64,000 nucleotides of DNA, taken from NCBI RefSeq assembly GCF_002483365.1, contig NZ_DLHT01000018.1, positions 8,560-72,559 on the forward strand. The letters are read 5' to 3'. This document shows positions 24,705-63,490 of the stretch, piece after piece. Both the position numbers and the translations under genes were made by a program. Position 1 is the stretch's first letter, and each line of letters begins with the position of its first letter. Below the pieces are notes generated by a model. That model saw only the letters and a program-made list of their open reading frames with translations, made no database searches and was not told where the DNA came from. Origin of the DNA: Cellvibrio sp. UBA7661. GTDB lineage: Bacteria > Pseudomonadota > Gammaproteobacteria > Pseudomonadales > Cellvibrionaceae.

Positions 24705-24731
24705 TAAAGCTCCTTCTGGATGTGTCGATAA
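24705..24731 (+). promoter_or_regulatory. sigma-28 (FliA) promoter of fliC1
   Basis: TAAAGCTC-N11-GTCGATAA, about 114 nt upstream of the fliC1 ATG. Confidence 0.7.
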
Positions 24732-38759: not shown

Positions 38760-40958
38760 ATGCTCCATTTTTTTGTTCCCGCCACTAAGGTGCAAAAAGA
38801 CCGCGCCATCATGCGTGAAACAGATGCACGCGTAGCCAAGTACAGCCGACGTGGCTTGATACTGAACTTCATCGTCTTTGTACTGTGTTTGGCATTCGGT
38901 GATTTTCAGGAAAAAGAGCACAATCTAGCCATTGTCCTGGTGACGGGCCTGCTGCTGGTGACACTCGGGCGTAGTTACTATCTCTTCCGTTTTGACACTC
39001 TCTATGCGCGTGCGCCAACACGTTGGCGCAACCAATACTTTTTTGCATCTTGCCTTGGTGCTGCCTGGTGGAGCGCAATTCTGGTAACGCTCACCTGGGT
39101 ACAGGGTATGCGTGATGAAACACTGGTGATGTGGCTGTACTCGGTAGTGTTTTATTCCAGTGTTGCCAACGTATTTGCGCCTTACAGACATTTTCTCAGT
39201 TTGTATTTAGCGATAGGCCAGATTCCTGCTGCCATTACCGCAATTTTATTAGGTACTGCAGAAGGTGCCCTCTATGGCTGCATCATGCTGGTGTTTTATG
39301 TGATGCTCAGTCACCAGGGCAAAGTAACATCACTAGCGTATTGGGAGCGTTTGGAGGCTCATTATTCACTGCGCGAGCGCGCACAGGGGTTGGAAAATGA
39401 AAAGCGTAGTTCCCAAGCGCAAATTGAATTAAAAAATGAATTTCTGGTTAATCTCGGGCAGGAAATCCGTTCATCTATCAGCGATGTAATGAGTACTTTG
39501 TCATTGATCGATGACAGCCAATTATCTGAACATCATCGCGAGTTACTGGCGACGGCGAATAAAGCCACTGGCAGACAAATCGATCTGGTTAACAACGTCG
39601 TTGATTTTTCCAAAATTACGACGAAAACCTTGGTACTCGATGAAGTTGAATTTGATTTGCGCCGGGTTTTGGAAAAATTTGTCCAGGATTTTACGCTCGA
39701 TGCGCATCAGCAAGGTATAGAGCTGTATTACAACTTTGACCCTAATATGCCATTGCGGGTGAAGGGCGATGTCACGCGCCTGAATCAAATCCTGGCAACA
39801 CTACTCAACCATACACTGAAAGCGAGCCGAATAGATCATGTGTATATTGAGGCCCGTTTTCATCAAGAGCAGGATGACTTCGGTGAGCTGCAAGTCATTA
39901 TCAGTGACGGCGAAAAAAATATCGCCGGTGAAAATGATCCTGAAGCTTATGAAAGCAAACAGACGGGTATCGGCCTTTCAATTTGTAAAGGTTTGGCTGA
40001 GTGTATGGGTGGAAGTATTCATCTGCGCGAAAATAAAAATCGCGGCAACCGGATTTTTATTAATGTCGCATTGCAGGTCATTTCCCATGAAGAGCGCCGT
40101 TTTGGTTCTGAACAAAAGTTGCGTGGTAAACGAGCGCTTTTAGTAGATTTGCCAGATAGTAATGCCAACGCGTTGGCCGATGAGATTAATGCTTGGGGTA
40201 TGAGTACCACCATTGTGGCCGGGCAAGAGCAGGCAATTGCCAAATTGCGCGAGCAACGGGCCAGCTCAGCGCCGTTTGATATGGTGCTCATTTTTACCAA
40301 GCTAAACAATATGAATGGTTTGGCGTTGTCCCGTGAGATTGTGTCTCACCCCGATATTGCAGATGTTAAACAAATTATTGCGATGAGTATTTTGCAGAGC
40401 GATAGCCCGGAGATGAAATTACACCTGCGTACTTATCCGCAGGTGAGCATTATTGAAAAACCCATTATGCGCCGCCGTCTGCTTGATATTGCAGTGCAAA
40501 AATTATTAAACCTGAATAGTGAAGATGAGCAGCGAAAAACCATTGATAAAGAAACTGTTGGAATGGTGGTTGTGCCGCGAGTCTTGCTGGTGGAAGATCA
40601 TCGTGTCGATCAAATGGTCATCAGCGCTATGCTCAAAAAACTCGGCTGTTATGTGCAAGTAGCGCAAAACGGTTTGGAGGCGGTAGAAATTGTTGAAAAA
40701 GAGCGCTTTGATTTGGTGTTGATGGATTACGACATGAAAGAGCAAGACAGTATTGTTGCCACAGAAAAAATCCGCAACTATGAACGCATGACACACAGTG
40801 TGCGCCGTCTACCTATTATTGCTGTAACCTCAGCACAATCTGAAACCGATCAGGATGTCTATCTGTCTGCGGGTATGGATGATCACATTAGCAAGCCGAT
40901 CCGCTACGATGATCTGGATGTGAGGCTTCAACGTTGGCTTGAACAGTCTGGCGTTTAA
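38760..40958 (+). CDS. hybrid sensor kinase-like protein with degenerate H box, a pseudo-receiver and an intact receiver
   Basis: 732 aa. A roughly 6-TM N-terminus is followed by a DHp-like segment reading FLVNLGQEIRSSIS, where kinases have SHEIRTP. The ATPase boxes are partly degenerate (LLNHTLKAS, SDGEKN, QTGIGLSIC). The first receiver lacks the acceptor Asp (MVLIFTKL). The second receiver is canonical (LVEDH, LVLMDYDM, AVTS, SKP). Confidence 0.75.
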   Translation: MLHFFVPATKVQKDRAIMRETDARVAKYSRRGLILNFIVFVLCLAFGDFQEKEHNLAIVLVTGLLLVTLGRSYYLFRFDTLYARAPTRWRNQYFFASCLGAAWWSAILVTLTWVQGMRDETLVMWLYSVVFYSSVANVFAPYRHFLSLYLAIGQIPAAITAILLGTAEGALYGCIMLVFYVMLSHQGKVTSLAYWERLEAHYSLRERAQGLENEKRSSQAQIELKNEFLVNLGQEIRSSISDVMSTLSLIDDSQLSEHHRELLATANKATGRQIDLVNNVVDFSKITTKTLVLDEVEFDLRRVLEKFVQDFTLDAHQQGIELYYNFDPNMPLRVKGDVTRLNQILATLLNHTLKASRIDHVYIEARFHQEQDDFGELQVIISDGEKNIAGENDPEAYESKQTGIGLSICKGLAECMGGSIHLRENKNRGNRIFINVALQVISHEERRFGSEQKLRGKRALLVDLPDSNANALADEINAWGMSTTIVAGQEQAIAKLREQRASSAPFDMVLIFTKLNNMNGLALSREIVSHPDIADVKQIIAMSILQSDSPEMKLHLRTYPQVSIIEKPIMRRRLLDIAVQKLLNLNSEDEQRKTIDKETVGMVVVPRVLLVEDHRVDQMVISAMLKKLGCYVQVAQNGLEAVEIVEKERFDLVLMDYDMKEQDSIVATEKIRNYERMTHSVRRLPIIAVTSAQSETDQDVYLSAGMDDHISKPIRYDDLDVRLQRWLEQSGV

Positions 40959-41045: not shown

Positions 41046-41184
41046 CAGGCAGCTGATTTTAAAACTATGCTGTAAGGCATGCATGCCTTCAATATCACCA
41101 GATCACTATTATAAAACTACTATAAAAAACCAAACAAACCATCAAACACTACATATAAAACAAACAGCGCATAAAGGGTTGGCA

Positions 41185-44100
41185 ATGAACAGAGTTCATC
41201 AGAGTAATACCATTTCGTCTGTCTTCATGTCGTTTCTCCATCTTGTGGGGGCGGTAGCAGTCATTTTTGGCTTGGCGGCCTGCGGGAAAACAGAACCTCC
41301 CCCGAGCACAGTGAAAAAAGAGCAGTCCACGCAAGAAACTGTTGTTGGAGCCAAAATACTGGTGTTCAGTAAAACAGCAGGTTGGCGTCATGATTCCATT
41401 CCTGCAGGCATTGAAGCCTTGCAGAAGCTGGCAGCTGAAAATCAATTTACGGTTGTTGCGAGCGAAGATTCAAGTGTATTTACAGATGCTGAGCTCAGCC
41501 AATTCAATGCAATCATTTTCTTAAACACAACGCTCAATATTCTTGATGAGAATCAGGAATTGGCAATGGAGCGATACATTCAAGCAGGTGGTGGTTTTGT
41601 TGGGGTGCATGCCGCAGCAGATACGGAGTGGGAAGGTGACTGGTTTTGGTATCGCAACCTGGTGGGCGCTGTTTTTAAAAACCACCCGAATGAGCCAAGT
41701 AATGTGCAGGTGGCAACCGTCAATTTCACTGATAAAAAACATCCTTCAACCGAAAAAATGCCAGATGCGTTTTCTATGGCAGATGAATGGTACAACTATC
41801 GCGATATGTATGAATTTATCAACGTCGTAGCCAAGGTTGATGAATCTACTTATGTCGGCGGTGAGCATGATCACGATCATCCTATTTCCTGGTATCACGA
41901 ATACGATGGTGGCCGTGCGTTTTATACTGGTATGGGACATTCAGCTGAGGTTTATTCCAATCCTGATTTCCTGAAACATTTGTTGGGTGGTATCACCTAC
42001 GCAGTTGGTCTCAACCATCGCCCGGGTTTTACACCGCGTTTGGATTACTCCAAATCCCGTCCGGAAAATAATCGTTTCATTAAAAAAACCTTGGTTGAAA
42101 ATTTGGATGAGCCAGTCAAGTTGGCATTTTTTCCTAATGGCGACGCTCTTATTGCATTGCGTCCGGGAAAATTCCAGCGTGTTGATTACAAAACCAATCA
42201 ACTAAGCGATGCCGGAAAATTAGTGACTGCTTATGATAAATATCAGGAGTGGGGGCTTGTTGGTGTAGCGGTAGATCCTGAGTTTGCAACCACGCAAGCT
42301 ATTTATGCAGCCTTCACTACAAAAGATGAAGCGGGAAATATCTATCAGCGGTTGTCCCGTTTTTTGTGGCGCAATAATCAGGTAGATGCAGCGACAGAGC
42401 AAATGATCCTGCAGTATCAGATTGATAATAACTGCTGTCACACCGGTGGTGATTTACAGTTTGGCCAAAATGGCGAATTGTTTTTTTCAACGGGCGATAA
42501 CACCAACCCACATGATCAAGATGGTTACGCTCCTGTAGATCTTCGCCCTGGTATGAAGAAAAATGATGGTATGCGCGGGCCCGGCAACACTCAGGATTTG
42601 CGCGGTAAAGTATTGCGCATCAAGCCGAAAGCAGAAGGCGGATACGATATCCCGGAAGGGAACCTCTTCAGTGATGCTGCCCAAGGTCGCCCAGAAATTT
42701 ACGTAATGGGTGCGCGTAACCCATACAGTATTACTTACGATAAAAAAACCAGCACATTGTTTTATGGTGATGTCGGACCTGATGCAAGCAACGACTCTGA
42801 AGAAAAAGGTTCACGCGGTTACGATGAGGTTAACCGTGTAACAGCGCCAGGAAATTTTGGTTGGCCGTTAGTTATTGGCCAAAATCGCCCATACAAACAA
42901 TACGATTACGTCAATAAAAAAACGGGCGAGTTCGTTGATGTAAATGCCCCTGTTAATTATTCACCGAACAACACGGGTGCAAAACAATTGCCACCTGCAC
43001 AACCGGCATTTATTGCATATCCTTATGGGATTTCCGATGTTTTCCCTGAATTGGGTACAGGTGGACGTACAGCATTGGTTGCCGATGTTTATCGTGCGAA
43101 CGAGTATCCCGAATCAGTAAATCGCTATCCAGCGTATTACAACGAAAAATTATTTATTGTTGAATTTATGCGCGCCTGGGTAAAAGCCGTAAGCTTCGAT
43201 GCACAAGGGCGCATTCATAAGATTGAACCATTTGCACCGCAAATTAATTATGCATTACCGATTGATGCACGCTTCTCACCCGATGGCACTTTGTATGTGC
43301 TTGAATACGGTCTTTCGTGGTTCACCGGAAATCCAGATGCCCGTCTTGCCCGTATTGAATACGTAGGTGCAGGCAATCGTCCACCTATTGCAGAAATTGC
43401 TGTCAATAAAAGCCAGGCGGGAATTCCTGCTGCCATTCATGCATCAGCCAAAAAATCAGTCGACCTCGACAGCGATAAGATGGCTTATAAATGGGTATTG
43501 GGGTGTGCGGATAATAGTTGTCCACAACGGCAGTTGGGTGACGCTACTGAAGTGAACTTATCGTTTGATAAGGCTGGAAAATACAATTTGGCATTAACCG
43601 TGACAGATGTTCATGGTGCAACTTCATCCACAAATACCCAACTTGATATTGGCAATGAGCCTTCGCAGATCGAATTTTCGTTAAACCAAAACCAATCATT
43701 TTATTGGGCTGACACAAGCAAGCTGAACTACACCTTCACTGTTCAGGATCAAGAGGACGGTGCCGTTACCGAGGTCGACAACAGCAACCCGTTAATCACA
43801 TTTGAATATATTTCACCGGTCAGTAAAAAAGGGCAGGGGCATCAGGTTGTAGATGTTATCCAACAAGCAAAAGCATTGGTTGATGCGAATAATTGTCTTG
43901 GTTGCCATAAGGTAGATGAAAAGCTGGTTGGCCCGGCATTTCGCGATGTTGCCCGTAAATACCAAAATGACCCGAATGCAATTAAGTATTTGGTCAATAA
44001 ACTTGCTAACGGCGGTGCCGGTGTTTGGGGTGAGATGAATATGCCAGGCTTCTCTGGCTTGAGTGATGCAGATCGTACTGCGTTGGCGACTTATGTTTTG

Positions 44101-44706
44101 TCGCTGGCAGAAGATAACTCGCCTAAAGGTTTACCTTTATCTGGCGTAGTTGCGCTTGAATCCCATCAAAAAAATGTAACCGGCTTAACAGCGAATTCAC
44201 CATACAGCAGTCTTGGAGATGCCTATAAATTCTCAGCCAGTTATACCGATAAAGTTGCTAATGGTATGCCGTCGATCCAAACGGTTCAGGAGTTCAAGTT
44301 AGTCCCTTATCGTTTTGATTTTGATAGTGTATTTAACCCTGACCTGGCATCCAAAGGTGTAGCACAAGATACTTTCAGGGAGATTAAGACGATCAAGTTC
44401 AATGCGGATGATAATTGGGCTGGTTTTGCAATAGGCCGATATGATTTGTCATCGGTGAAGTCATTAAAAATTGGGGCACTCTTTTTCAAAGAGCCAACCA
44501 AATGGTTAATTGAAGTTCGCCGCGCAAATGCACAAGGTGACGTATTGGCGGAGGGTGTACTGACTCCCCAAGAGCTTAAAACCTACGGCCGTACAGAGAT
44601 TGTATTAAAAGAGTCTACAGGCTTCTTTGATCTGTATATCCAGGTGAAGCCCGAACAAAAAACGTCTGCTGAGTTGCGTTTGCAAGATATTAGTTTTGAA
44701 AAATAA
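41185..44706 (+). CDS. multidomain lipoprotein: ThuA-like + PQQ-type (sGDH-like) sugar dehydrogenase propeller + PKD + cytochrome c + CBM-like domain
   Basis: Start taken at MNRVHQSN (lipobox LAAC). Five domains follow. (1) A ThuA-like region (ILVFSKTAGWRHDSIP...GGGFVGVHAA...HPISW). (2) A glucose/sorbosone-dehydrogenase-like region (GLVGVAVDPEF...HTGGDLQFG...LRGKVLRI...GARNPY...NFGWP). (3) A PKD repeat (YNLALTVTDVHGAT). (4) A heme site CLGCH with a distal Met region (GVWGEMNMP). (5) A C-terminal beta-sandwich-like domain of about 190 aa. Confidence 0.75.
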   Translation: MNRVHQSNTISSVFMSFLHLVGAVAVIFGLAACGKTEPPPSTVKKEQSTQETVVGAKILVFSKTAGWRHDSIPAGIEALQKLAAENQFTVVASEDSSVFTDAELSQFNAIIFLNTTLNILDENQELAMERYIQAGGGFVGVHAAADTEWEGDWFWYRNLVGAVFKNHPNEPSNVQVATVNFTDKKHPSTEKMPDAFSMADEWYNYRDMYEFINVVAKVDESTYVGGEHDHDHPISWYHEYDGGRAFYTGMGHSAEVYSNPDFLKHLLGGITYAVGLNHRPGFTPRLDYSKSRPENNRFIKKTLVENLDEPVKLAFFPNGDALIALRPGKFQRVDYKTNQLSDAGKLVTAYDKYQEWGLVGVAVDPEFATTQAIYAAFTTKDEAGNIYQRLSRFLWRNNQVDAATEQMILQYQIDNNCCHTGGDLQFGQNGELFFSTGDNTNPHDQDGYAPVDLRPGMKKNDGMRGPGNTQDLRGKVLRIKPKAEGGYDIPEGNLFSDAAQGRPEIYVMGARNPYSITYDKKTSTLFYGDVGPDASNDSEEKGSRGYDEVNRVTAPGNFGWPLVIGQNRPYKQYDYVNKKTGEFVDVNAPVNYSPNNTGAKQLPPAQPAFIAYPYGISDVFPELGTGGRTALVADVYRANEYPESVNRYPAYYNEKLFIVEFMRAWVKAVSFDAQGRIHKIEPFAPQINYALPIDARFSPDGTLYVLEYGLSWFTGNPDARLARIEYVGAGNRPPIAEIAVNKSQAGIPAAIHASAKKSVDLDSDKMAYKWVLGCADNSCPQRQLGDATEVNLSFDKAGKYNLALTVTDVHGATSSTNTQLDIGNEPSQIEFSLNQNQSFYWADTSKLNYTFTVQDQEDGAVTEVDNSNPLITFEYISPVSKKGQGHQVVDVIQQAKALVDANNCLGCHKVDEKLVGPAFRDVARKYQNDPNAIKYLVNKLANGGAGVWGEMNMPGFSGLSDADRTALATYVLSLAEDNSPKGLPLSGVVALESHQKNVTGLTANSPYSSLGDAYKFSASYTDKVANGMPSIQTVQEFKLVPYRFDFDSVFNPDLASKGVAQDTFREIKTIKFNADDNWAGFAIGRYDLSSVKSLKIGALFFKEPTKWLIEVRRANAQGDVLAEGVLTPQELKTYGRTEIVLKESTGFFDLYIQVKPEQKTSAELRLQDISFEK

Positions 44707-44813: not shown

Positions 44814-45749
44814 TTATGAGTTTACCGCTGTAATTGCATCTGCACTGACGACACAGTTTCGGCCTGATTTTTTTGCCAGATATAATGCATTATCAGCTCG
44901 TTCAAAAAATTCATTAACGTGTTCTTTGGGAGATCCCTGGTAAGTGGCGATGCCAACGCTGATGGTCATATTGAGCATTTTGCCATTGTGTGAAATAGGT
45001 GTTTCGGCAATTTGCTGACGAATGCGCTCGGCAATAATTTTGGCTCCTTCGGAGTCTGTTTTTCCAAGTACAACTACAAATTCTTCGCCGCCATAACGGA
45101 AGGTGATATCACTGCCACGACATACGGATTGGATGGTTTTGGCTATTTCGCGGAGCACCATGTCACCGCGATTATGTCCGTATTCATCGTTAATTTTTTT
45201 GAAAAAATCAACATCGATGATTAACAAGGATAATGGCGTTTTGTGGCGTTCTGCCATTTGCAACTCACGGCGCAAGGCGGTATCCAAAGCGGCGCGATTA
45301 CCCAACATAGTAAGCGGATCAAGCAGGGCAAGGCGCATGGCCGTTTGGTAGCGGATTGAGTTGCGCAGTGGGTAAATCAGCGAGCTTAGTAAAAACTCCA
45401 GCGTAATTAATTCAGCTTCAACAAAGCGTTTACTGCGACTAAAAATGATTTCACCCAGATAGCCTTCATCGGTAGTCAAACGATAATCGCAGTGATGCAG
45501 GCATTCACGGCCCACTTTTAAGACATTGCTACCGTCACTGAACTTAAAAACCAGACCAGATACATTGACCAAGGATTGGATGTGTTTGTAAAACAGATTG
45601 AGGATTTCCCCGGTGTCCAGGCTCATTTGTAACGCCTGGGACAGGCGTACCCGAGTGCTGAGCTCCTGTTCAGGTGTCAGGGGGATGAGAGGAATGTTGG
45701 CTGCGCCATTTACCTGATGGGAATTAGTCACCAGAGTCATGTCCCGCAT
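44814..45749 (-). CDS. diguanylate cyclase (N-terminal sensory domain + GGDEF)
   Basis: 311 aa. Active-site GGEEF with an RxxD I-site five residues upstream (RGSDITFRYGGEEF), plus DVDFFKKINDEYGH. Confidence 0.85.
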   Translation of the reverse strand: MRDMTLVTNSHQVNGAANIPLIPLTPEQELSTRVRLSQALQMSLDTGEILNLFYKHIQSLVNVSGLVFKFSDGSNVLKVGRECLHHCDYRLTTDEGYLGEIIFSRSKRFVEAELITLEFLLSSLIYPLRNSIRYQTAMRLALLDPLTMLGNRAALDTALRRELQMAERHKTPLSLLIIDVDFFKKINDEYGHNRGDMVLREIAKTIQSVCRGSDITFRYGGEEFVVVLGKTDSEGAKIIAERIRQQIAETPISHNGKMLNMTISVGIATYQGSPKEHVNEFFERADNALYLAKKSGRNCVVSADAITAVNS

Positions 45750-51489: not shown

Positions 51490-53268
51490 ATGTCTTTGCA
51501 GAGTCCCGTCCTGAATCCTCTAACCCTGCAACAAGAGTTGAGGCGCTTGATTGAGTTCAAGCTGCTTACGCCAGTATTTCAACCAATTATAGCGCTAGAG
51601 AATCCCCGCATTATTGGCTATGAAGCTCTAATCCGTGGTCCGCAAGAGAGTGCGCTTCATAAGCCGGATCTGCTGTTTTCTATCGCGCGCGAGTCACGCT
51701 TGTTGGCAAGTTTGGAATTTGCCTGCCGGGAGGTGTCTTGCGAGCGTTTTGCCGAGTTGGAGTTGCCGGGCAAATTATTTTTAAATATGAGCCCTATTAG
51801 CTTCACTGACAGCCAATATCGCGATGGAGTTACCCGTGAAATTTTACAGCGTGTAGGGCTGGATGCGGAACGCGTAGTATTTGAGTTGACCGAGAGTCAG
51901 CCACTGGATGAGCTTGATTTACTGAGGGCAGCATCTGATCACTTCCAGCGTCAAGGATTTGCAGTTGCGCTGGATGATTTGGGCGCGGGCTATGCAGGTT
52001 TGCGTGTATGGAGTGAGTTGTGCCCTGATTATGTCAAAATTGATCGGCACTTTATTAGTGGTATAGATAAAGATCCTGTGAAGCGCGAATTTGTGCGTGC
52101 CATGTTGGATATTGCCCATCGTATTGGTCATAAAGCAATTGCAGAGGGAATTGAAACGGCGGCAGAGTTTAATACGCTGATGGCAATGGGGGTTGAGTAT
52201 GCACAAGGATATTTTATTGCCCATCCCCATGCAGATCCCTCTACAGTCCTGCCTGAAAAAATAACGCAGCTGGCAGGTATGTCCAGACCGCGCTATCAAG
52301 ACCACTTTACCCGCACAGTAAGTGAGATCGTCACAGACTCTGTGAGTATTTGTTCAACTGAATCTGCCGAAAACGTGGTGAAAATGTTTCGTGCGGACGT
52401 TCGTTTGAGCTGTGTTCCGGTAGTTGATGGTGATACACCATTGGGAATGGTGAGTCGCGCAGAGCTATTGAATATCTTTTCGCGTCGTTTTGCACATGAA
52501 CTTCATGCCGATAAGCCAATTAAAGATTTTATTAGTTCTTTATCAATTATTGTCGATATCAATACAGAACTTAAAGTAGTAGGACAAATTATCAGTGAAG
52601 ATCCACAGCAAAATCTTAGCGTGGATTTTATTGTGTGCGAACAGCAGCGCTATCGTGGTGTAGGTAAGGTGCGTGATTTATTGCGTGCGATTACAGAGGA
52701 AAAATTGCGCGCTGCGCGCCACAGCAACCCGTTAACGCAATTACCCGGCAATGTTCCTTTATACGAATGTGTAGATCATTTGCTTTTGACCCAAAAGGAA
52801 TTCGTTGTTGCTTACTGCGATATCAATCACTTTAAACCTTTTAATGATGCATTTGGTTATAGCGCAGGCGATGAGGTGATATTGCAGTTGGGGAAAATTC
52901 TGAGCGAGAGCGTTGATGAGCGATGTGATTTTGTTGGCCATGTAGGGGGCGATGATTTTATCCTGGTGTTTTGCAGTGCCAATTGGCAACAGCGTTGCGA
53001 ACAAATACTGCACAAATTTGAAAGTGTCAGCCGTCAATTTTTGCCTGGTAATTCACCTGAATATTGGAGTTTTGATCGGCAGGGGCGGCGGCAAAAATTT
53101 GGAGCATTGACCCTGGCAATAGGTTGCGTCCTTCCTGATGTAAATCTATGCAAAACCCATCATCAAGTTTCACAATTACTGGCTGAGGCCAAACACAGTG
53201 CCAAAATGCAGGGCGGTAACCAGTTATTTCAATCTCGCCGCCGCAATCCTTCTGTCGATGCGACCTGA
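51490..53268 (+). CDS. EAL phosphodiesterase fused to a CBS pair and a GGDEF-like domain
   Basis: 592 aa. The EAL domain has YEALIRGP, DDLGAGYAG and KIDRHF. The CBS-like middle region contains CVPVVDGDTPLGMVSR. The C-terminal cyclase-like domain has INHFKPFNDAFGYSAGD and the variant motif GGDDF. Confidence 0.8.
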   Translation: MSLQSPVLNPLTLQQELRRLIEFKLLTPVFQPIIALENPRIIGYEALIRGPQESALHKPDLLFSIARESRLLASLEFACREVSCERFAELELPGKLFLNMSPISFTDSQYRDGVTREILQRVGLDAERVVFELTESQPLDELDLLRAASDHFQRQGFAVALDDLGAGYAGLRVWSELCPDYVKIDRHFISGIDKDPVKREFVRAMLDIAHRIGHKAIAEGIETAAEFNTLMAMGVEYAQGYFIAHPHADPSTVLPEKITQLAGMSRPRYQDHFTRTVSEIVTDSVSICSTESAENVVKMFRADVRLSCVPVVDGDTPLGMVSRAELLNIFSRRFAHELHADKPIKDFISSLSIIVDINTELKVVGQIISEDPQQNLSVDFIVCEQQRYRGVGKVRDLLRAITEEKLRAARHSNPLTQLPGNVPLYECVDHLLLTQKEFVVAYCDINHFKPFNDAFGYSAGDEVILQLGKILSESVDERCDFVGHVGGDDFILVFCSANWQQRCEQILHKFESVSRQFLPGNSPEYWSFDRQGRRQKFGALTLAIGCVLPDVNLCKTHHQVSQLLAEAKHSAKMQGGNQLFQSRRRNPSVDAT

Positions 53269-53359
53269 GTATTCCCACTCAATAAGCCAACAATAATAAG
53301 CCTAGCACTCGGGTAATCCTGAGCTATCCTTACTGTGATTTCTTTCTGGAGGTAAAGGC

Positions 53360-55006
53360 ATGGCTGATCTTGGCTATTACAAGATGCACGCGCTGATTAT
53401 TGATGATTTCGAAAATTTCCGTGGCACACTTTATAAGATGTTGATGGATCTGGGGATAGGGAATGTTGATACAGCAGCAAGCGGCGAAGAGGCACTGCGT
53501 TTTTGCAGGGCACGCACCTACGACCTGATTCTCTGCGACAACAACCTTGGCAAAGGCAAAAGTGGTCAGCAGGTGCTGGAAGAGCTTCGCTCGACCGACA
53601 ACCCCTGTGCTGACAGTCTGTTTATACTGGTTTCGGCAGAATCCAGTAAAAGCATCATTATGGCTGCCTATGACTATGAGCCCGATGCCTATCTTGCCAA
53701 GCCAATTACACCGAAAGCGCTTGACCAGCGTCTGAGTCGTTTAATTGAACAACGCGCTGAGTTAAAAGCAATTCAGGTAGCCCAAAAAGCGGGGGATAAC
53801 CAACAGGCAATCAAACTCTGTAAAGAGCTTATCGCCAATGGAAGCCGCCACACCAATAGTTGCCAAAAATTATTGGGCCAACTTTATTTAACCAACAATG
53901 ATGTGGCTGCTGCAGAAGAGCTGTATCGCACAGTGTTGGATAATCGTGAATTGGAATGGGCTCAGTTGGGAATGGTGCGAACAAAATTGGCGCAGCATGA
54001 TTATCTGGGCGCACAACAGTGGTTGGAAAATATTCTGCAGGGAAATCCCCTTTGCATGAAAGCGTATGATTTGCAGGCAGAGCTTTTCAAATTGCAAAAT
54101 GATACGGAAGGCTTGCAAAATATTTTGCAGAAAGCCACTGATATTTCACCTCTTTCTATTCTTAGGCAGCAAGCGTTAGGCGATGTTGCGCAACAAAATA
54201 ATGATTTGGTTACGGCTGCAAACGCACTAAGGCGTGCAGTTAAACTTGGCGAGCACTCCTGTTTTGATAAAGCAGAGGTGCATTCATTATTTGCCCAAAC
54301 AACAATTGATTTGCATTCAATCGATAAAGAGTTAGCCAAGCCTTTGGTTCGTGATGCAATTAATTGCATAGTGAATTATGAGGATAACTTCGGTAAAACC
54401 CAGCTCAAAAAAGCCGAATCATTACTCCTTGAAAGTCAATTGCAGGTATGTGCTGGCGATCAGCGTCGTGCACAAGAAGCATTGAGTAGTGCGCAAACTG
54501 TTTTAGGTAACACCAAGGATGCCGATGCGCTTCCTGTACAAATTGAAATGGTTCGTGCCTTACGCGTTCTTGGTAAAACAGATGAGGCACAAAGACGCTT
54601 GGCGGATCTGTTACAGCATTATGCAAGTAATGAGGATCAATTGCAGAAGTTGGATGTGTTGTTGGACGAACCGCGCAGTGAAAAAAACAAGCTGATGGTG
54701 GCGGAGATTAATAAAAAAGGTATTGCTGCCTATAACGCCAAAGATTTTTCCACAGCCGCAGATTCATTCAAAATTGCATTGCAAAAGCTACCTAACCATG
54801 TTGGTCTTCGGTTGAACTATGTGCAGGCTATGATCGACAAATTGAAAAGTAATTTTGAACAGGCTACCAGCGAAAAAATACAGCAGGCCTTTACCAAAGC
54901 GAGTGCAATCATTTCCTCGCAGCATCCCCAATATCAACGTTATCGCCAGTTGAGTGAGGTCTATACCAATTTGGTAAAAGCGTATGAAAAAAATAGTCGA
55001 GGTTAA
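53360..55006 (+). CDS. response regulator: receiver domain fused to TPR-like helical repeats
   Basis: 548 aa. The REC domain has all key residues (IIDDFE, LILCDNNLG, LVSAES, LAKP). The remaining 400 aa or so are repetitive helical TPR-like sequence. No DNA-binding or enzymatic output domain was recognised. Confidence 0.75.
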   Translation: MADLGYYKMHALIIDDFENFRGTLYKMLMDLGIGNVDTAASGEEALRFCRARTYDLILCDNNLGKGKSGQQVLEELRSTDNPCADSLFILVSAESSKSIIMAAYDYEPDAYLAKPITPKALDQRLSRLIEQRAELKAIQVAQKAGDNQQAIKLCKELIANGSRHTNSCQKLLGQLYLTNNDVAAAEELYRTVLDNRELEWAQLGMVRTKLAQHDYLGAQQWLENILQGNPLCMKAYDLQAELFKLQNDTEGLQNILQKATDISPLSILRQQALGDVAQQNNDLVTAANALRRAVKLGEHSCFDKAEVHSLFAQTTIDLHSIDKELAKPLVRDAINCIVNYEDNFGKTQLKKAESLLLESQLQVCAGDQRRAQEALSSAQTVLGNTKDADALPVQIEMVRALRVLGKTDEAQRRLADLLQHYASNEDQLQKLDVLLDEPRSEKNKLMVAEINKKGIAAYNAKDFSTAADSFKIALQKLPNHVGLRLNYVQAMIDKLKSNFEQATSEKIQQAFTKASAIISSQHPQYQRYRQLSEVYTNLVKAYEKNSRG

Positions 55007-55008
55007 TT

Positions 55009-55731
55009 GTGAATTCTATATCTGATCATCATTCTGATAGTCATAACTCCGCACAGGTTCCTATTGATTTTGCATTCGTGCTGGCTTCGAGTGTGCACGA
55101 TATGAAAAACTCATTGGGGATGTTGTTGCACACGCTTGCAGAAATGATGGAGAGCTCCCCACCAAAAGATGCCGAGCAAGCACGCTTTTTTTCGACATTG
55201 GAGTATGAGGCTGCGCGCATCAATGGCGAGCTGGTTCAGCTGCTATCACTCTACAAGATGGATGAGAAAACCTTGGCGATATTGATAGATGAGCATCATG
55301 CTATCGATATTATTGAAGAGCAAATTGCCCGGAATGATACCTTATTAAAATCACGCAATATTGATATACAAATCGATTGTGATCCTGATTTGGTTTGGTA
55401 TTTTGATAATGAATTGGTGGGGGGCGTATTAAATAATTTGATTGTAAATTGTGCGCGTTACTGCAAAAAGCAGCTGTTGGTGAGTGCAACAGAAGAAAAT
55501 GGTTTTTTATGTATTGCAGTGGCTGATGATGGTCAAGGTTATCCCGATAGCATGCTATTGGGGCCATTGCCACAAGCAGCAGTATCTTTTAATTCCGGTA
55601 ATACCAAGCTGGGTTTGCTATTCGCGCGCAAGGTGCTTGAATTGCACAAAACCAAAAAAGGGCAAGGGTACATGACGATTGCCAACAATGGACCTTTGGG
55701 GGGCGGCGTGCTGAAATTGTATTTACCTTGA
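55009..55731 (+). CDS. soluble mini histidine kinase (DHp + HATPase only)
   Basis: 240 aa. The GTG start lies 2 nt after the upstream stop, with a GAGG SD. NtrB-like H box SSVHDMKNSLG; N box NNLIVNCARY; G1 DDGQGYP; G2 GNTKLGLLFA. No TM or sensor domain. Confidence 0.7.
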   Translation: MNSISDHHSDSHNSAQVPIDFAFVLASSVHDMKNSLGMLLHTLAEMMESSPPKDAEQARFFSTLEYEAARINGELVQLLSLYKMDEKTLAILIDEHHAIDIIEEQIARNDTLLKSRNIDIQIDCDPDLVWYFDNELVGGVLNNLIVNCARYCKKQLLVSATEENGFLCIAVADDGQGYPDSMLLGPLPQAAVSFNSGNTKLGLLFARKVLELHKTKKGQGYMTIANNGPLGGGVLKLYLP

Positions 55732-55823
55732 TGATGCCGGATACATCCAGATTGGGTGTTGAAATCACCTGACTGCTATTGCATCATCTAAGTCCAATTT
55801 TTTCTATTTTCAGGTTTGATCCT

Positions 55824-56699
55824 ATGCTTAAAATCCGCTTTAAAGATAATAAATACAATGCGGTATGGCTGGTTGAGCCGAAAATCACTATAGGTCGTTC
55901 GGCAACAAATGCATTAGTCATTGATGATCCTTTAGCCAGTGATGTCCATATGGAGGTGTTGGTTGATAATGAGCATCTCACACTGCGTAATTTGATACCT
56001 ACGCAGCCGGTAATCGTCAATGGACAGGCAGTGACGGGTGCTTGTGAGCTTAAACCGGATGATCAAATTAGTTTGGGTCGTGTTGAGCTTGTCGTGATCG
56101 ATCCCAAACGCGAAGCCAAAATTGTTGCAGAAGAATCTGCCAACGTGACGCAACTGCGCACTCCGCAAGTGACGGGGTGGTCCCTCAAGGCTCACCATAC
56201 TGCGCTGGCCAACAGAATATACCCGTTAAAAGAGACCAATGTTATTGGTCGTTCTAATGATTGTGACATCAGTTTGGCTGCTGCACATTTATCCCGCCGT
56301 CATGCCCAACTGCAAATAATTGACGGTATGTTGTTTGTCAAAGATTTGGATTCAGCCAATGGCACTTTCCTGAATGGTAAACGTGTTGCGGAGGCCAGGG
56401 TAAGACGTGGTGATGAATTGCGATTCGATGCTCTGACATTCGGTGTCATGGGGCCGACTGATGATATGGCCAAAACGACGGTGCGCAAAGCTCCTGTAAA
56501 ACCTGATGTGCCTGAAATAAAACCCAGGCCTGCGCGTGAAAAAGCATCTACACCGACTCGTGCTTCATCACCTAATCGCTCCGCTGCTGCTATGCAGCCA
56601 CAGCCCGCGTCTGATAACGTCAAAGGTAGATTCGGATTAATTTTCTTGGGGGTATTGGCTGTTATAGTTATAACAACCCTGATCTTAACGAGAAAATAA
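55824..56699 (+). CDS. membrane-anchored protein with two FHA domains
   Basis: About 291 aa from MLKIRFKD. FHA1 carries IGRS...SDVH...VNG. FHA2 is canonical (IGRSNDCDI...SRRHAQL...SANGTFLNG). A P/S/T/A-rich linker and a single C-terminal TM (FGLIFLGVLAVIVITTLIL) follow. Confidence 0.75.
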   Translation: MLKIRFKDNKYNAVWLVEPKITIGRSATNALVIDDPLASDVHMEVLVDNEHLTLRNLIPTQPVIVNGQAVTGACELKPDDQISLGRVELVVIDPKREAKIVAEESANVTQLRTPQVTGWSLKAHHTALANRIYPLKETNVIGRSNDCDISLAAAHLSRRHAQLQIIDGMLFVKDLDSANGTFLNGKRVAEARVRRGDELRFDALTFGVMGPTDDMAKTTVRKAPVKPDVPEIKPRPAREKASTPTRASSPNRSAAAMQPQPASDNVKGRFGLIFLGVLAVIVITTLILTRK

Positions 56700-56773
56700 T
56701 TATTGAAGCTTTGCAGAAAATGGCCGAAACCCTGTGATGCCACAGACAGATACTGCCGCACTCAGGTGATCTT

Positions 56774-58117
56774 ATGAACATTTCTTCCTTAAATAACCCT
56801 TCCGTTTCAACGAACGTACCGGGTAATAAAACAGCCGGTACACCCACAGATGCCGATAAATTAGCGTCCAAAACCGGGGATTTCACCCCAGGTGGAAAAA
56901 ACAGTGTCGTTACGGCAAGTACAATTCTATCCGTCAGTTTTGAGGATAAGCGTCAAACTGCCCTGCAAATAGTTAACCGTACCCTCGCTCAGGCCTATGA
57001 AAAAATCAGCTCGCGAGGGCAGGCAGCCAGTGCGGAATACGAAACCTTTGAACCACTCACCGCTGAGAAAGTTGCCTCTAATATTCTTGGCTTCATCGAG
57101 CGTAGACTGCAAATGGACGTTGCTGACGGTGCATCCCAAGAGGAGCTGCAAGCACGATTAGAAGCAGGCTTGGCGGGCTTTAAAAAAGGCTTTGCGGAAG
57201 CGAGTGAGAAGCTGGAGGCATTGAGTCTGTTGTCTCCGGAAATTAAGGCTGATATCGGGAAAACCTATGATTTGGTGCTTGAAGGTGTGGATGAGTTGCG
57301 TGCTAAATTCATCCAATCTACCACTGAACAGATTCCTGCAAGCCCATCGAAAACTGAATCTGAAATTGTGAAAACAGCAGCACCTAAAGCCTCTTCGCCT
57401 GCAAAGCTTGATGTACCGGATTTTCTTCCTGCTGCTGGCGCTGTCCCTGCCGCCAATAGCTACATGGGATATGGCAATTATGAGTATGGTCGCGCTCGTG
57501 AATTCAGCTTTGAGCTGAGAACAAAAGAAGGCGACATAGTGACGATCAAGGCAAGCTCCAGTGAAGGTTTTGCTGTCGAGGCTGGTCGCGCTTCCCGGGG
57601 TAATCAATCTGTAAGCGCCATGAATGCGAGTTATAGCTCCAGCGAATCCTTTTCGTTCTCAATCGAGGGTGAATTGAACGAAGATGAGTTGGCTGCAATT
57701 AATGATTTGCTGGGGCGAGTAAATGATCTTGCCGGACAATTTTTTGAAGGCAATTTAGATTCTGCATTTGAGCAAGCAATGAATCTGGGATACGACGCTG
57801 AACAGATCGGCAGTTTCTCACTCAATCTGGCTCAGGCAGAAATACAGCAGGTCACCCAAGCTTATCAAACGTTTGAGCCAGGTAATAATGCTGGAGGTAT
57901 CGATAAGCCTGCATTGCTAACTGACCAATTGTTGCCATTAGGAAATTTTATTAAAAATTTGTTAGATAGCTTGGATCGCGCTTCTATTTTTGATGAGCCT
58001 AAGTCGCTGTTGTCTGGTATGGCAGAGAAAATTACTGGCGAAGGTGAAATGGATCAATTACAAGGCAAACGATTCCGCGACTTCATCGAGGAAATGTTTG
58101 CTTTGGAATTGCGTTAG
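56774..58117 (+). CDS. hypothetical acidic protein, no recognised family
   Basis: 447 aa with an AGGTGA SD. It has an S/T/N-rich N-terminal tail, helical acidic segments and a central P/A/S linker. There is no TM segment or signal peptide. It may belong to a DUF family, but I cannot assign one from sequence alone. Confidence 0.6.
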   Translation: MNISSLNNPSVSTNVPGNKTAGTPTDADKLASKTGDFTPGGKNSVVTASTILSVSFEDKRQTALQIVNRTLAQAYEKISSRGQAASAEYETFEPLTAEKVASNILGFIERRLQMDVADGASQEELQARLEAGLAGFKKGFAEASEKLEALSLLSPEIKADIGKTYDLVLEGVDELRAKFIQSTTEQIPASPSKTESEIVKTAAPKASSPAKLDVPDFLPAAGAVPAANSYMGYGNYEYGRAREFSFELRTKEGDIVTIKASSSEGFAVEAGRASRGNQSVSAMNASYSSSESFSFSIEGELNEDELAAINDLLGRVNDLAGQFFEGNLDSAFEQAMNLGYDAEQIGSFSLNLAQAEIQQVTQAYQTFEPGNNAGGIDKPALLTDQLLPLGNFIKNLLDSLDRASIFDEPKSLLSGMAEKITGEGEMDQLQGKRFRDFIEEMFALELR

Positions 58118-58203
58118 TCGTTAATAATAGGGTTTTATTAATTTGATGTTTTATGAGTCGGCAGCAATAATTGTTGCTCCGCCATACTTATGAAGATTTT
58201 GTT

Positions 58204-58452
58204 ATGAAACCCGTGTATCTCTATTCAACCCTTGGCTGTCATCTATGTGAGATGGCCAAGGAGATTGTGTCCCCTTTGTTAAACTATTATTCCCTCTATC
58301 TGGAAGAAATCGAAATCGCTGAATCAGATGAATTGGTTGAGCGTTATGGTGTGCGAATTCCAGTATTGAAATCGCCACATCATTTAGATGAGTTGGGCTG
58401 GCCATTTGATACGAGCCAGGCAAAAGCTTTTTTAGACAGAATAACAACTTGA
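58204..58452 (+). CDS. glutaredoxin-like thioredoxin-fold protein
   Basis: 82 aa from MKPVYLYSTLGCHLCEMAKE, with a CxxC motif after beta1 and a later cis-Pro region (IPVL). It resembles the small glutaredoxin-2/DUF836 family. Confidence 0.65.
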   Translation: MKPVYLYSTLGCHLCEMAKEIVSPLLNYYSLYLEEIEIAESDELVERYGVRIPVLKSPHHLDELGWPFDTSQAKAFLDRITT

Positions 58453-62461: not shown

Positions 62462-63490
62462 ATGGCGATTAGCCTTGATGTCTTAGCGTCTTTTGCGCCG
62501 TTTAACACCCTGAATCATGAATATATTATTCAAGTAGCGGAAAAAGCCAACCTGCGTGAAGTGACTAAAGGCACTATTATCTTCAAACGCGGCAGACCAT
62601 TTCCTGAAAAAGTATATTTGGTCAGTGGTACTGTTGATTTGATTGATTCAGGCTTCCAAATCAATACTATTAATCCCGCTAGTGAATCGCGCCGTTCTCC
62701 TCTAAATATCACCCAGCCAACGCAAGTATCTGCTGTTGCCAAGTCGGACGTTACGCTTTTGTCTGTCGATAGTGATTTTCTTGATTTGGTACTTGCTTGG
62801 AGCGAGTCCAATGATGAGGAGGCAGAAACATCTGGTGTGAGCCTGCATGACGACAGTGATTGGATGTCTTCACTGTTGCAGTCGCCTCTATTTAGTCGTT
62901 TACCTCCAGCTAATATCCGTCAGCTATTCATACGATTCAAAGCACAAAAAGTGCAAGCTGATGAAATTGTTATTCGTCAGGGCGAGCGCGGTGACTTTTT
63001 TTATGTGCTGGAGTCGGGTAGTGCCATCGTAATGGATACAAGCGATAAGATATTGGCGGCATTGCGCCCAGGACAATATTTTGGTGAGGAAGCATTGGTG
63101 GGGGATACCACACGCAATGCCACTATTAAAATGATCACCCCCGGTAAAGTGATGAAGCTCGACAAAGAAGATTTTCGTGAGTTATTGCAAGAGCCGGTTT
63201 TAAAGTATGTTACCGCAGATGAGCTGAAGGCACGTTCAGATGATATGCCAGCCTACCAGATCATTGATGTTCGATTACCGGTTGAGCGAAGGGGAGAGTC
63301 AGTCCCGGAAAGCCGGAATATTCCCCTCAATCAATTACGCAACCATCTCAAGAATCTCGATGAGACAATTACCTATGTCGTAACCGATGATTCTGGGCGA
63401 CGCTGTGATGTTGCAGCCCATCTACTTGCCCAAGCTGGTTTTAATAGTTGTATCCTAAAAGATTCAGCAGCGCATTACGCTGGGCTCTAA
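62462..63490 (+). CDS. protein with two cyclic-nucleotide-binding-like domains and a C-terminal rhodanese-homology domain
   Basis: 342 aa. The second cNMP domain is canonical (FGEEALVGDTTRNATIKM). The rhodanese-like end (YQIIDVR...NIPL...YVVTDDSGRRCDVAAHLLAQAGF) has Asp where the catalytic Cys normally sits. Confidence 0.7.
   Translation: MAISLDVLASFAPFNTLNHEYIIQVAEKANLREVTKGTIIFKRGRPFPEKVYLVSGTVDLIDSGFQINTINPASESRRSPLNITQPTQVSAVAKSDVTLLSVDSDFLDLVLAWSESNDEEAETSGVSLHDDSDWMSSLLQSPLFSRLPPANIRQLFIRFKAQKVQADEIVIRQGERGDFFYVLESGSAIVMDTSDKILAALRPGQYFGEEALVGDTTRNATIKMITPGKVMKLDKEDFRELLQEPVLKYVTADELKARSDDMPAYQIIDVRLPVERRGESVPESRNIPLNQLRNHLKNLDETITYVVTDDSGRRCDVAAHLLAQAGFNSCILKDSAAHYAGL

Follow-up and report, generated by a model that had tools for sequence, protein, structure and literature searches.

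Introduction

Phosphothreonine (pThr) signaling modules that combine a Hanks-type kinase, a PP2C phosphatase and an FHA protein are known from Pseudomonas (PpkA-PppA-Fha1 of the H1 type VI secretion system) and from mycobacteria (PknB-PstP-FhaA/FhaB), and N-terminal FHA domains are carried by EspA from Myxococcus. In the VieSAB system of Vibrio cholerae, the REC-TPR protein VieB, which consists of an N-terminal receiver (REC) domain with a conserved Asp, a TPR region and a C-terminal half without a DNA-binding or enzymatic domain, binds and inhibits its kinase under the control of its own Asp (PMC4352251). Elements reminiscent of both kinds of system are found close together in a 64-kb stretch of DNA from Cellvibrio sp. 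UBA7661 (contig NZ_DLHT01000018.1; the whole stretch is referred to as the window), in which four open reading frames (ORFs) on the plus strand, called g1 to g4, encode a response regulator with TPR-like repeats, a sensor-less histidine kinase, a double-FHA protein and an acidic protein, and are followed by a downstream neighbor, g5.

A first-pass annotation had read these four genes as a cassette encoding one previously undescribed system. The genes are real and uncharacterized, and to this extent the proposal stands, but the separability of the genes, their own promoters, the PP2C and kinase context of g3 and the stand-alone occurrence of g4 speak against a single system. We favor the reading, with a probability of about 0.6, that three independently transcribed units (g1-g2, g3 and g4) make up the region as a mosaic and stand in tandem in the Cellvibrio/Gilvimarinus/Marinimicrobium lineage; in this reading, g1-g2 would be a self-contained two-component pair, g3 a relocated FHA adaptor of the Hanks-kinase/PP2C type and g4 a FliA-controlled DUF5610 protein.

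Results

Gene order in related loci

Two sets of related loci were compared with the window. A g4-anchored genome scan yielded 66 loci, all from Cellvibrionaceae, of which 56 could be judged for gene order by tblastn, and a g2-anchored metagenome scan yielded 80 loci, for which the denominator given with each relationship is the number of loci that could be judged. The order cmoA (minus strand), an optional EAL-CBS-GGDEF gene, g1, g2, g3, g4 and g5 was present in 30 of the 56 g4-anchored loci, among them loci from Gilvimarinus and Marinimicrobium with identities of about 40-50%; in the metagenome set, the order g1-g2-g3-g4-g5 was seen in about 15 loci. Sorted by linkage, 30/56 g4-anchored loci were of the histidine kinase-FHA-DUF5610 type and 6/56 of the PP2C/FHA-DUF5610 type, and 19/56 lacked an FHA gene; in these 19 loci a g4 paralog was found without shared neighbors. 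The EAL-CBS-GGDEF gene is absent between cmoA and g1 in many otherwise collinear loci.

In the metagenome loci, g1 was located immediately upstream of g2 in every case (49/49), and cmoA was located upstream of the pair in 39/42. The next gene after g2 was g3 in 37/58 loci, and in 20/58 nothing related followed g2, a convergent gene being next. After g3 came g4 in 15 of 29 loci and g5 directly in 14 of 29, and across related loci g5 can follow g4, g3 or even g2. As adjacency of g1 and g2 was found in 49/49 loci, compared with only partial co-occurrence of g3 and g4, only g1-g2 is invariant as a unit. Where g1-g2-g3-g5 loci were compared with the window, g3 was 62-72% identical and g1 and g2 were 50-55% identical. 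A profile from divergent g4 members was needed to reach taxonomic orders beyond that of Cellvibrio; g4 homologs stand alone in Psychrosphaera, Alkalimarinus, Alteromonas and four further contigs, with unrelated flanking genes that are mostly on the opposite strand. Synteny of all four genes thus holds within Cellvibrio, Gilvimarinus and Marinimicrobium even where the proteins are only about 40% identical, but it does not extend to an obligate four-gene set, only g1-g2 being invariant and g4 standing alone in Alteromonadales. In one locus from Gilvimarinus chinensis (L057, 5294-7877), a g1 homolog matched over residues 12-497 only is followed by g3, with no g2 detectable between them; the g2 kinase may have been lost there.

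Promoter-like elements

Upstream of g1, a promoter-like element (TAGCAC ... GCTATCCT) is located at 53303-53330 on the plus strand, with a -10-like hexamer TATCCT at 53325-53330. The element, GCTAT(T/C)CT, lies about 30 nucleotides (nt) 5' of the ATG and is conserved whether the upstream gene is the EAL gene or the divergent cmoA. For g3, a consensus scan and conservation point to a sigma-70-type promoter (TTGAAA-17 nt-CATCAT; 55759-55787, plus strand). The promoter is conserved as TTGAAA-N17-CATTAT; its consensus in Cellvibrio, Gilvimarinus and Marinimicrobium is GTTGAAATC-N13-CTAT(T/A)GCATTATC, 35-38 nt 5' of the ATG, and a weaker version precedes g3 in L047, L046 and L060, three loci with a divergent PP2C gene. 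When used as a strict pattern, the g3 promoter matched 57 times in 3.6 Mb, most of the matches being at the g3-upstream position, and it was present in 46 of 84 distinct g3 upstream regions.

The site found upstream of g4 is of a different, sigma-28 (FliA) type (TGAAGCTT-N11-GCCGAAAC; 56704-56730, plus strand), scores 12/16 against the consensus TAAAGTTT-N11-GCCGATAA and ends 43 nt 5' of the ATG. Orthologs of g4 have GCCGATAA or GTCGATAA at the same position, with scores of 13-16/16, and the Alkalimarinus homolog has TAAAGTTT-N11-GACGCTAA at its promoter site. Scores of at least 12/16 were obtained for 68 of 84 distinct upstream regions of the g4 family versus 33 of 3000 (1.1%) random 160-nt windows, and 17 of 22 family members without an FHA neighbor, Psychrosphaera and Alteromonas among them, also scored at least 12. 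Within the window, the sigma-28 motif before flgM/flgN (6939-6913, minus strand) and before a flagellin gene (24705-24731) served as internal control; no upstream site scoring at least 12/16 was detected for the second flagellin gene (27772). By this comparison, g4 is predicted to have a FliA-type promoter at a suitable upstream distance.

Judged from the sequences, g1-g2, g3 and g4 are each preceded by a conserved promoter-like element of their own, which stays with the gene whatever its upstream neighbor. A structure resembling a terminator is seen in this strain only, at 55727-55793, where the region of the g2 stop codon (TGATGATGC) can pair with the -10 region of g3 (GCATCATC) and a T-rich tract comes next. 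This hairpin, which RNA folding predicts to span the stop codon of g2 and the promoter of g3, was rejected as a terminator, being not significant (z -1.6) and not conserved in relatives. An Rfam search of 51-59 kb of the window gave no match.

The REC-TPR regulator and the sensor-less kinase

The first gene, g1 (53360-55006, plus strand; ORF, Pfam), encodes a response regulator of 548 amino acids (aa) with a CheY-like receiver and an all-helical TPR-like output, and g2 (55009-55731, plus strand; ORF, Pfam, NCBIfam) encodes a sensor-less cytoplasmic histidine kinase of 240 aa (DHp and CA domains) with a GTG start. The junction between them reads GAGG (54998-55001), TAA (55004-55006), 2 bases and GTG (55009), just as annotated before. 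Since the GTG of g2 lies 2 nt past the g1 stop, with GAGG just upstream, g2 is predicted to be translationally coupled to g1.

In g1, Pfam recognizes Response_reg at residues 12-125 (E 2e-17) and the TPR families TPR_19, 14, 16, 12, 2 and 1 between residues 136 and 519. CheY is the nearest solved structure to the receiver (E 7e-14). Conservation of catalytic residues in g1 and g2 was assessed in orthologs at 37-83% identity. Among 25 g1 orthologs D15, D16, D60, A93, K114 and P115 are invariant and S92 is nearly invariant, so that the acidic pocket, the phospho-accepting Asp, the Ser/Thr and the Lys of a receiver are all in place, and the same alignment reveals two conserved helical blocks at about 160-300 and 428-530. 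The part C-terminal to the receiver is all-helical by predicted secondary structure; a single-sequence structure model of g1 had a predicted local distance difference test score (pLDDT) of 47.7, too poor for a fold search, and only its helical content was used.

For g2, HATPase_c was recognized by Pfam with 27.4 bits versus a cut-off of 26.4, and many histidine-kinase models align partially from residue ~26, which is the start of the DHp helix. In 12 orthologs at 49-81% identity, H30 (in SVHDMKNS), N147, D173-D174-G175-x-G177 and G197..G202-L203 are invariant and N143 is nearly so; g2 therefore has the phospho-accepting His in DHp and the N, G1 and G2 boxes of a HisKA-type kinase. No input domain was detected in Pfam and NCBIfam domain searches. 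The first-pass descriptions of g1 as an intact receiver fused to TPR-like repeats without DNA-binding or enzymatic output, and of g2 as a bare DHp plus ATPase kinase without input domain, agree with Pfam for g1 and with the profile matches and conserved boxes for g2. In the pair, g2 would autophosphorylate on His30 and the phosphate would then be transferred to Asp60 of the g1 receiver, the output of g1 would be protein-protein binding through its TPR-like half, and g1 would probably exert feedback on its own kinase g2, as in VieB.

The double-FHA protein and its kinase and phosphatase partners

The gene g3 (55824-56699, plus strand; Pfam, hydrophobic segment) encodes a tail-anchored double-FHA protein of 291 aa. 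An ORF listing had placed its start at TTG 55779, and alignment of orthologs places it at ATG 55824, as all 20 orthologs begin with MLK(I/L)RFKNNK; with this start the intergenic gaps are 92 nt (g2-g3) and 74 nt (g3-g4). Pfam recognizes two FHA/Yop-YscD_cpl domains (E 4e-31) and residues 270-288 form the only hydrophobic, potentially transmembrane, segment, so that Pfam and hydrophobicity bear out the earlier description of two FHA domains with a single C-terminal membrane helix. In the second domain (FHA2), GR (GRS), SRRH and SANGT are kept in all 20 orthologs, whether linked to the histidine kinase or to PP2C, and by these FHA-loop residues FHA2 is a canonical predicted pThr-binding domain. 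FHA1 lacks the conserved Ser and Asn, its GR and His being kept in most orthologs, and is probably not a pThr binder. Right after FHA2, a D-x-x-K-T-T-V-R motif (KTTVR; window 56470-56484, g3 residues ~216-220) is near-invariant in orthologs and conserved in histidine kinase-linked and PP2C-linked loci alike, making it a candidate Thr phosphorylation site.

A Pfam scan of ~40 main non-overlapping ORFs of the window gave no Pkinase or PP2C match, and tblastn of the kinase and PP2C from related loci against the 64-kb window gave no match at E <= 1e-3. The statement that the window contains neither a Hanks-type kinase nor a PP2C is therefore correct by both searches. In six other Cellvibrionales loci, a divergent PP2C gene is located directly upstream of g3, and g3-g4 does not adjoin g1-g2. 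In five of these six, a Ser/Thr kinase of 780-890 aa (Pkinase and FGE-sulfatase) is encoded beyond PP2C, with uvrB farther on. Kinase and PP2C precede g3 in L043, L047, L055, L060 and L066, and PP2C alone in L046; Pfam recognized Pkinase with FGE-sulfatase and PP2C in L043, L047, L055 and L066, and PP2C alone in L046. The arrangement in Pseudomaricurvus (L047) is uvrB, Ser/Thr kinase (minus strand), PP2C (minus strand), g3, g4, flavodoxin, TonB-dependent receptor, cmoA (minus strand), g1 and g2.

The conclusion that the pThr readers have no local writer was thus true for the window but does not extend to relatives, which have PP2C (six loci) and the kinase (five loci) beside g3, and the sequences of these loci suggest that this kinase and PP2C are the missing writer and eraser for g3. 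The protein g3 would then be a tail-anchored pThr adaptor, whose partners would be a membrane Ser/Thr kinase and a PP2C encoded elsewhere in the genome. Hydrophobic segments are present in the kinase and the PP2C from related loci as well, so that all three proteins appear to be membrane-anchored. In the five loci with both genes, the kinase (at ~3.2-5.9 kb) has an FGE-sulfatase (SUMF1-like) C-terminal domain after a hydrophobic segment, and the PP2C has a hydrophobic C-terminus.

The DUF5610 family protein

The fourth gene, g4 (56774-58117, plus strand; ORF, PF18433), encodes an acidic protein of 447 aa with a pI of 4.5, an N-terminus rich in S, T, N and Q, and neither Cys nor Trp. The first-pass annotation had noted its acidity and its Ser/Thr-rich N-terminus, both of which were found, and had assigned it to no family; its residues 65-175 match Pfam DUF5610 (PF18433) with 89.9 bits versus a gathering score of 26.4. 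When matched at full length, the family amounts to 1,731 clusters at 50% identity (E <= 0.001), with two conserved modules, the DUF5610 helical domain and a C-terminal module with the pattern FSFxLTTxDGDxVTI ... GELDExELxAINDLLxQVxxLAxxFFxGD. The N-terminal region is not conserved in sequence.

An AlphaFold2 model of g4 (pLDDT 66.7 overall, 80-90 in folded parts) contains a disordered segment (1-60), a weakly modeled helix (56-81), a helical bundle (97-180), a disordered linker (184-225) and then long beta-hairpins and helices. Foldseek of this model against the PDB gave no match at E <= 0.001; the sole meaningful match was 3sjr (CV_1783) to the helical domain, with a probability of 0.90 and a target-normalized TM score of 0.56. 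Porin and MACPF matches to the beta-rich part were rejected at TM scores below 0.1. Sequence searches of the PDB with g4 alone or with a 33-sequence profile gave nothing useful, and a literature search for DUF5610 (PF18433) or CV_1783 (3SJR) found nothing relevant. Short g4 relatives of ~180-205 aa with the DUF5610 helical domain alone were observed in L061-L064 and L102 (at about 8001-8540 in L062 and L064), and in L064 and L102 the gene for the short form comes right after that for the g2 kinase, an intervening FHA gene being absent.

Composition of the family is uniform, with 313 of 322 members lacking Cys, Trp making up 0.07% of residues and a median pI of 4.5. The flagellar proteins FlgD, E, F, G, J, K and L, both flagellins and FliD encoded in the window have no Cys at all; for contrast, the EAL-CBS-GGDEF protein has 13, g1 has 9 and g2 has 4. 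Such export substrates are encoded 20-50 kb upstream of g4. The disordered N-terminus, the acidity and the family-wide lack of Cys and Trp hint that members of the g4 family may be exported by the flagellar system, and g4 appears, from its upstream site and composition, to belong to the late flagellar gene program. As a late flagellar gene, g4 would be read from a FliA-type promoter of its own, and its product would act in, or be exported by, the flagellar system, without being an obligate partner of g3. A more far-reaching proposal, which is tentative and on balance doubtful, is that the DUF5610 family is a hitherto unrecognized FliA-controlled late flagellar protein of Gammaproteobacteria exported via the flagellar type III apparatus, and that in Cellvibrionales its gene stays next to those for a tail-anchored FHA adaptor and for a Ser/Thr kinase and PP2C, which might control export or activity of the protein through Thr phosphorylation.

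Surroundings in the window

The 592-aa EAL-CBS-GGDEF protein is encoded at 51490-53268 (plus strand) by an optional neighbor upstream of g1, outside the core (Pfam EAL, E 1e-55, CBS and partial GGDEF). Its EAL domain looks intact (EAL, DDLGAGYAG, KIDR, EGIE, QGY), and because its GGDEF motif is degenerate and reads GGDDF, the protein probably acts only as a phosphodiesterase of cyclic di-GMP (c-di-GMP). Downstream of g4, g5 (58201-58452, plus strand; Pfam Glrx-like) encodes a glutaredoxin-like DUF836 protein and is the most constant 3' neighbor.

A flagellar cluster at 5874-34846 comprises flgN, flgA (minus strand), cheV, cheR, flgD, E, F, G, H, I, J, K, an FlgL-like gene, two flagellins of ~675 aa and fliD. 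Between the flagellin genes and fliD, an unusual site for a sensor kinase, an 885-aa MASE1-CHASE-PAS histidine kinase is encoded (29961-32618). Other second-messenger genes at 2501-4942, 44814-45749 and 62462-63490 encode a PAS-GGDEF-EAL protein, a stand-alone GGDEF protein and a cyclic nucleotide-binding/rhodanese protein. The window also encodes a hybrid kinase with two receiver domains (38760-40958) and a 1,207-aa fusion of ThuA, glucose/sorbosone dehydrogenase, PKD and cytochrome c (41083-44706).

Discussion

How far the four genes belong together can be judged from gene order, promoters and the residues of FHA2. According to the first-pass annotation, they form one operon for a membrane-scaffolded phospho-relay, in which the g2-g1 His-Asp pair signals via g3 to g4. 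The four same-strand ORFs at the annotated coordinates, their spacing (2, 92 and 74 nt) and the lack of a predicted terminator are indeed as such a view expects, and the order g1-g2-g3-g4-g5 recurs, at identities as low as ~40%, in 30 loci from genomes and about 15 from metagenomes. We regard a single operon of this kind as quite improbable, since each unit has its own conserved promoter-like element, g1-g2 occurs without g3 and g4 in 20/58 loci and g3 without g4 in 14/29, g3-g4 is found with a Ser/Thr kinase and PP2C in place of g1-g2, and g4 stands alone in other orders; moreover, FHA2 keeps its pThr-binding residues, whereas a histidine kinase gives no pThr. A looser association, in which g1-g2 replaced or joined the kinase/PP2C pair as regulator of g3 in Cellvibrio-type lineages, for example by docking of the g1 TPR half on g3, and g4 is independent, seems unlikely. 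It would account for the finding that g3 adjoins g2 exactly where kinase and PP2C are missing and for the higher conservation of g3 than of g1 and g2 in g1-g2-g3-g5 loci, and TPR and FHA are both protein-binding modules. Nevertheless, g3 has the same promoter in both contexts and does not differ in sequence between them, the pThr-binding residues included; a single inherited rearrangement can explain the adjacency, L047 holds both blocks less than 6 kb apart, and many g1-g2 loci lack any g3.

A further alternative concerns g4 alone: without any flagellar role, it could serve the g3/kinase module in the cytoplasm as substrate or client, FHA2 reading its Thr-rich N-terminus after phosphorylation. 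This is rather unlikely. Although g4 stays adjacent to g3 in both contexts (36 of 37 g4-anchored loci with g3 are linked to the histidine kinase or to PP2C) and its disordered N-terminus is rich in Ser and Thr, this N-terminal region is not conserved in sequence, half of the loci with g3 lack g4, an FHA neighbor is absent for most family members, and the family as a whole shares the sigma-28-type promoter and the near-absence of Cys and Trp. The mosaic of three units remains the reading that we prefer, and several points weigh against it. The presence of g3 after g2 in about two thirds of g2-anchored loci could be due to a genuine link in function and not to synteny by descent. Sampling took in the loci of highest similarity, which are related to one another by phylogeny, and the counts therefore represent lineages and not independent events. 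A sequence scan found no convincing terminator between g2 and g3 or between g3 and g4, so that transcription from g1-g2 may read through. Among the Cellvibrio orthologs, g4 of the window has the weakest sigma-28 site (GCCGAAAC, 12/16). The kinase/PP2C pair is known from relatives' loci only, from which we infer its presence elsewhere in this genome. The structural model of g4 is of moderate quality (pLDDT 66.7), and to our knowledge no export or flagellar phenotype is known for the DUF5610 family.

If the composite reading is right, a "His-Asp-to-FHA pathway" is not a single system and modeling of a four-protein complex is unwarranted. The case for a new, integrated pathway is weak, and what is left is a two-component pair of an uncharacterized variety, an FHA adaptor that was relocated, and a clue to DUF5610. 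The conserved, dedicated pair of a REC-TPR protein and a sensor-less kinase would extend beyond Vibrio the idea embodied in VieB, that of a receiver-controlled TPR protein acting on proteins and not on DNA. Cellvibrionales would possess a conserved module of a membrane Ser/Thr kinase, PP2C and a double-FHA protein with the candidate phospho-site KTTVR. For DUF5610 (>1,700 clusters at 50% identity) a first functional clue is obtained, as the family seems to be tied to the late flagellar program and to have the composition of exported proteins; this lead is the most general one because it applies to many marine and soil Gammaproteobacteria.

Comparison with known systems

Placement of g1-g4 outside characterized pathways is consistent with the database searches: no PADLOC model was matched by any of the four, and a defense-system identity was rejected on this basis, all NCBIfam matches were far below their cut-offs, and the literature search had returned nothing on DUF5610. 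The first-pass annotation knew of no pathway coupling a His-Asp pair to FHA domains; for FHA domains coupled to a histidine kinase, the Myxococcus protein EspA offers a precedent, and g3 partially matches its NCBIfam model (NF052573, "serine histidine kinase EspA"). A literature search for FHA, TPR, response regulator and histidine kinase together returned general reviews only.

With FliA-dependent late genes and flagellar export substrates (FlgM, flagellins, hook-associated proteins), the g4 family shares a sigma-28-type promoter, a disordered N-terminus, an acidic pI and the lack of Cys; it differs in that g4 matches no flagellar Pfam family and that its genes are usually located outside flagellar clusters. 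CV_1783 from Chromobacterium violaceum (3sjr), which is probably the structure that defines DUF5610, has a helical bundle matching g4 residues ~65-175, but with 117 aa it consists of that domain only, whereas g4 adds the disordered N-terminus, a linker and a conserved beta-rich C-terminal module.

With the Hanks kinase/PP2C/FHA modules, g3 shares a canonical pThr-binding FHA domain, a membrane anchor and, in related loci, its pairing with PP2C and a kinase. The window itself lacks a kinase or phosphatase and does not qualify as such a module, and g3 further differs in having two FHA domains, the first one degenerate, and a C-terminal tail anchor, and the relatives' kinase in its FGE-sulfatase-like outer domain. 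No genes for a type VI secretion system, an injectisome or a divisome were found in the window or the related loci examined. Assignments of g3 as TagH, FhaB/FipA or SctD/YscD were rejected on NCBIfam scores (59 vs 120, 88 vs 125 and 23 vs 86, respectively) and on gene context.

An operon of the VieB type, with a hybrid sensor kinase and a REC-EAL-HTH regulator, is not present here, the EAL neighbor having no receiver and being absent from many orthologous loci. With its 240 aa and no sensor, g2 is unlike the VieB partner VieS, a large hybrid kinase that senses the periplasm and contains REC and Hpt domains. The regulators differ as well, since VieB is an auxiliary third component next to the conventional regulator VieA, while g1 is the sole regulator encoded at this locus. 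In both cases a gene for a c-di-GMP phosphodiesterase is nearby (VieA there, the optional EAL-CBS-GGDEF gene here), and in g1, as in VieB, a receiver is followed by TPR, no DNA-binding or enzymatic output is present and the gene lies beside that of a kinase. By architecture, on which alone the two proteins were compared, VieB is the closest known relative of g1.

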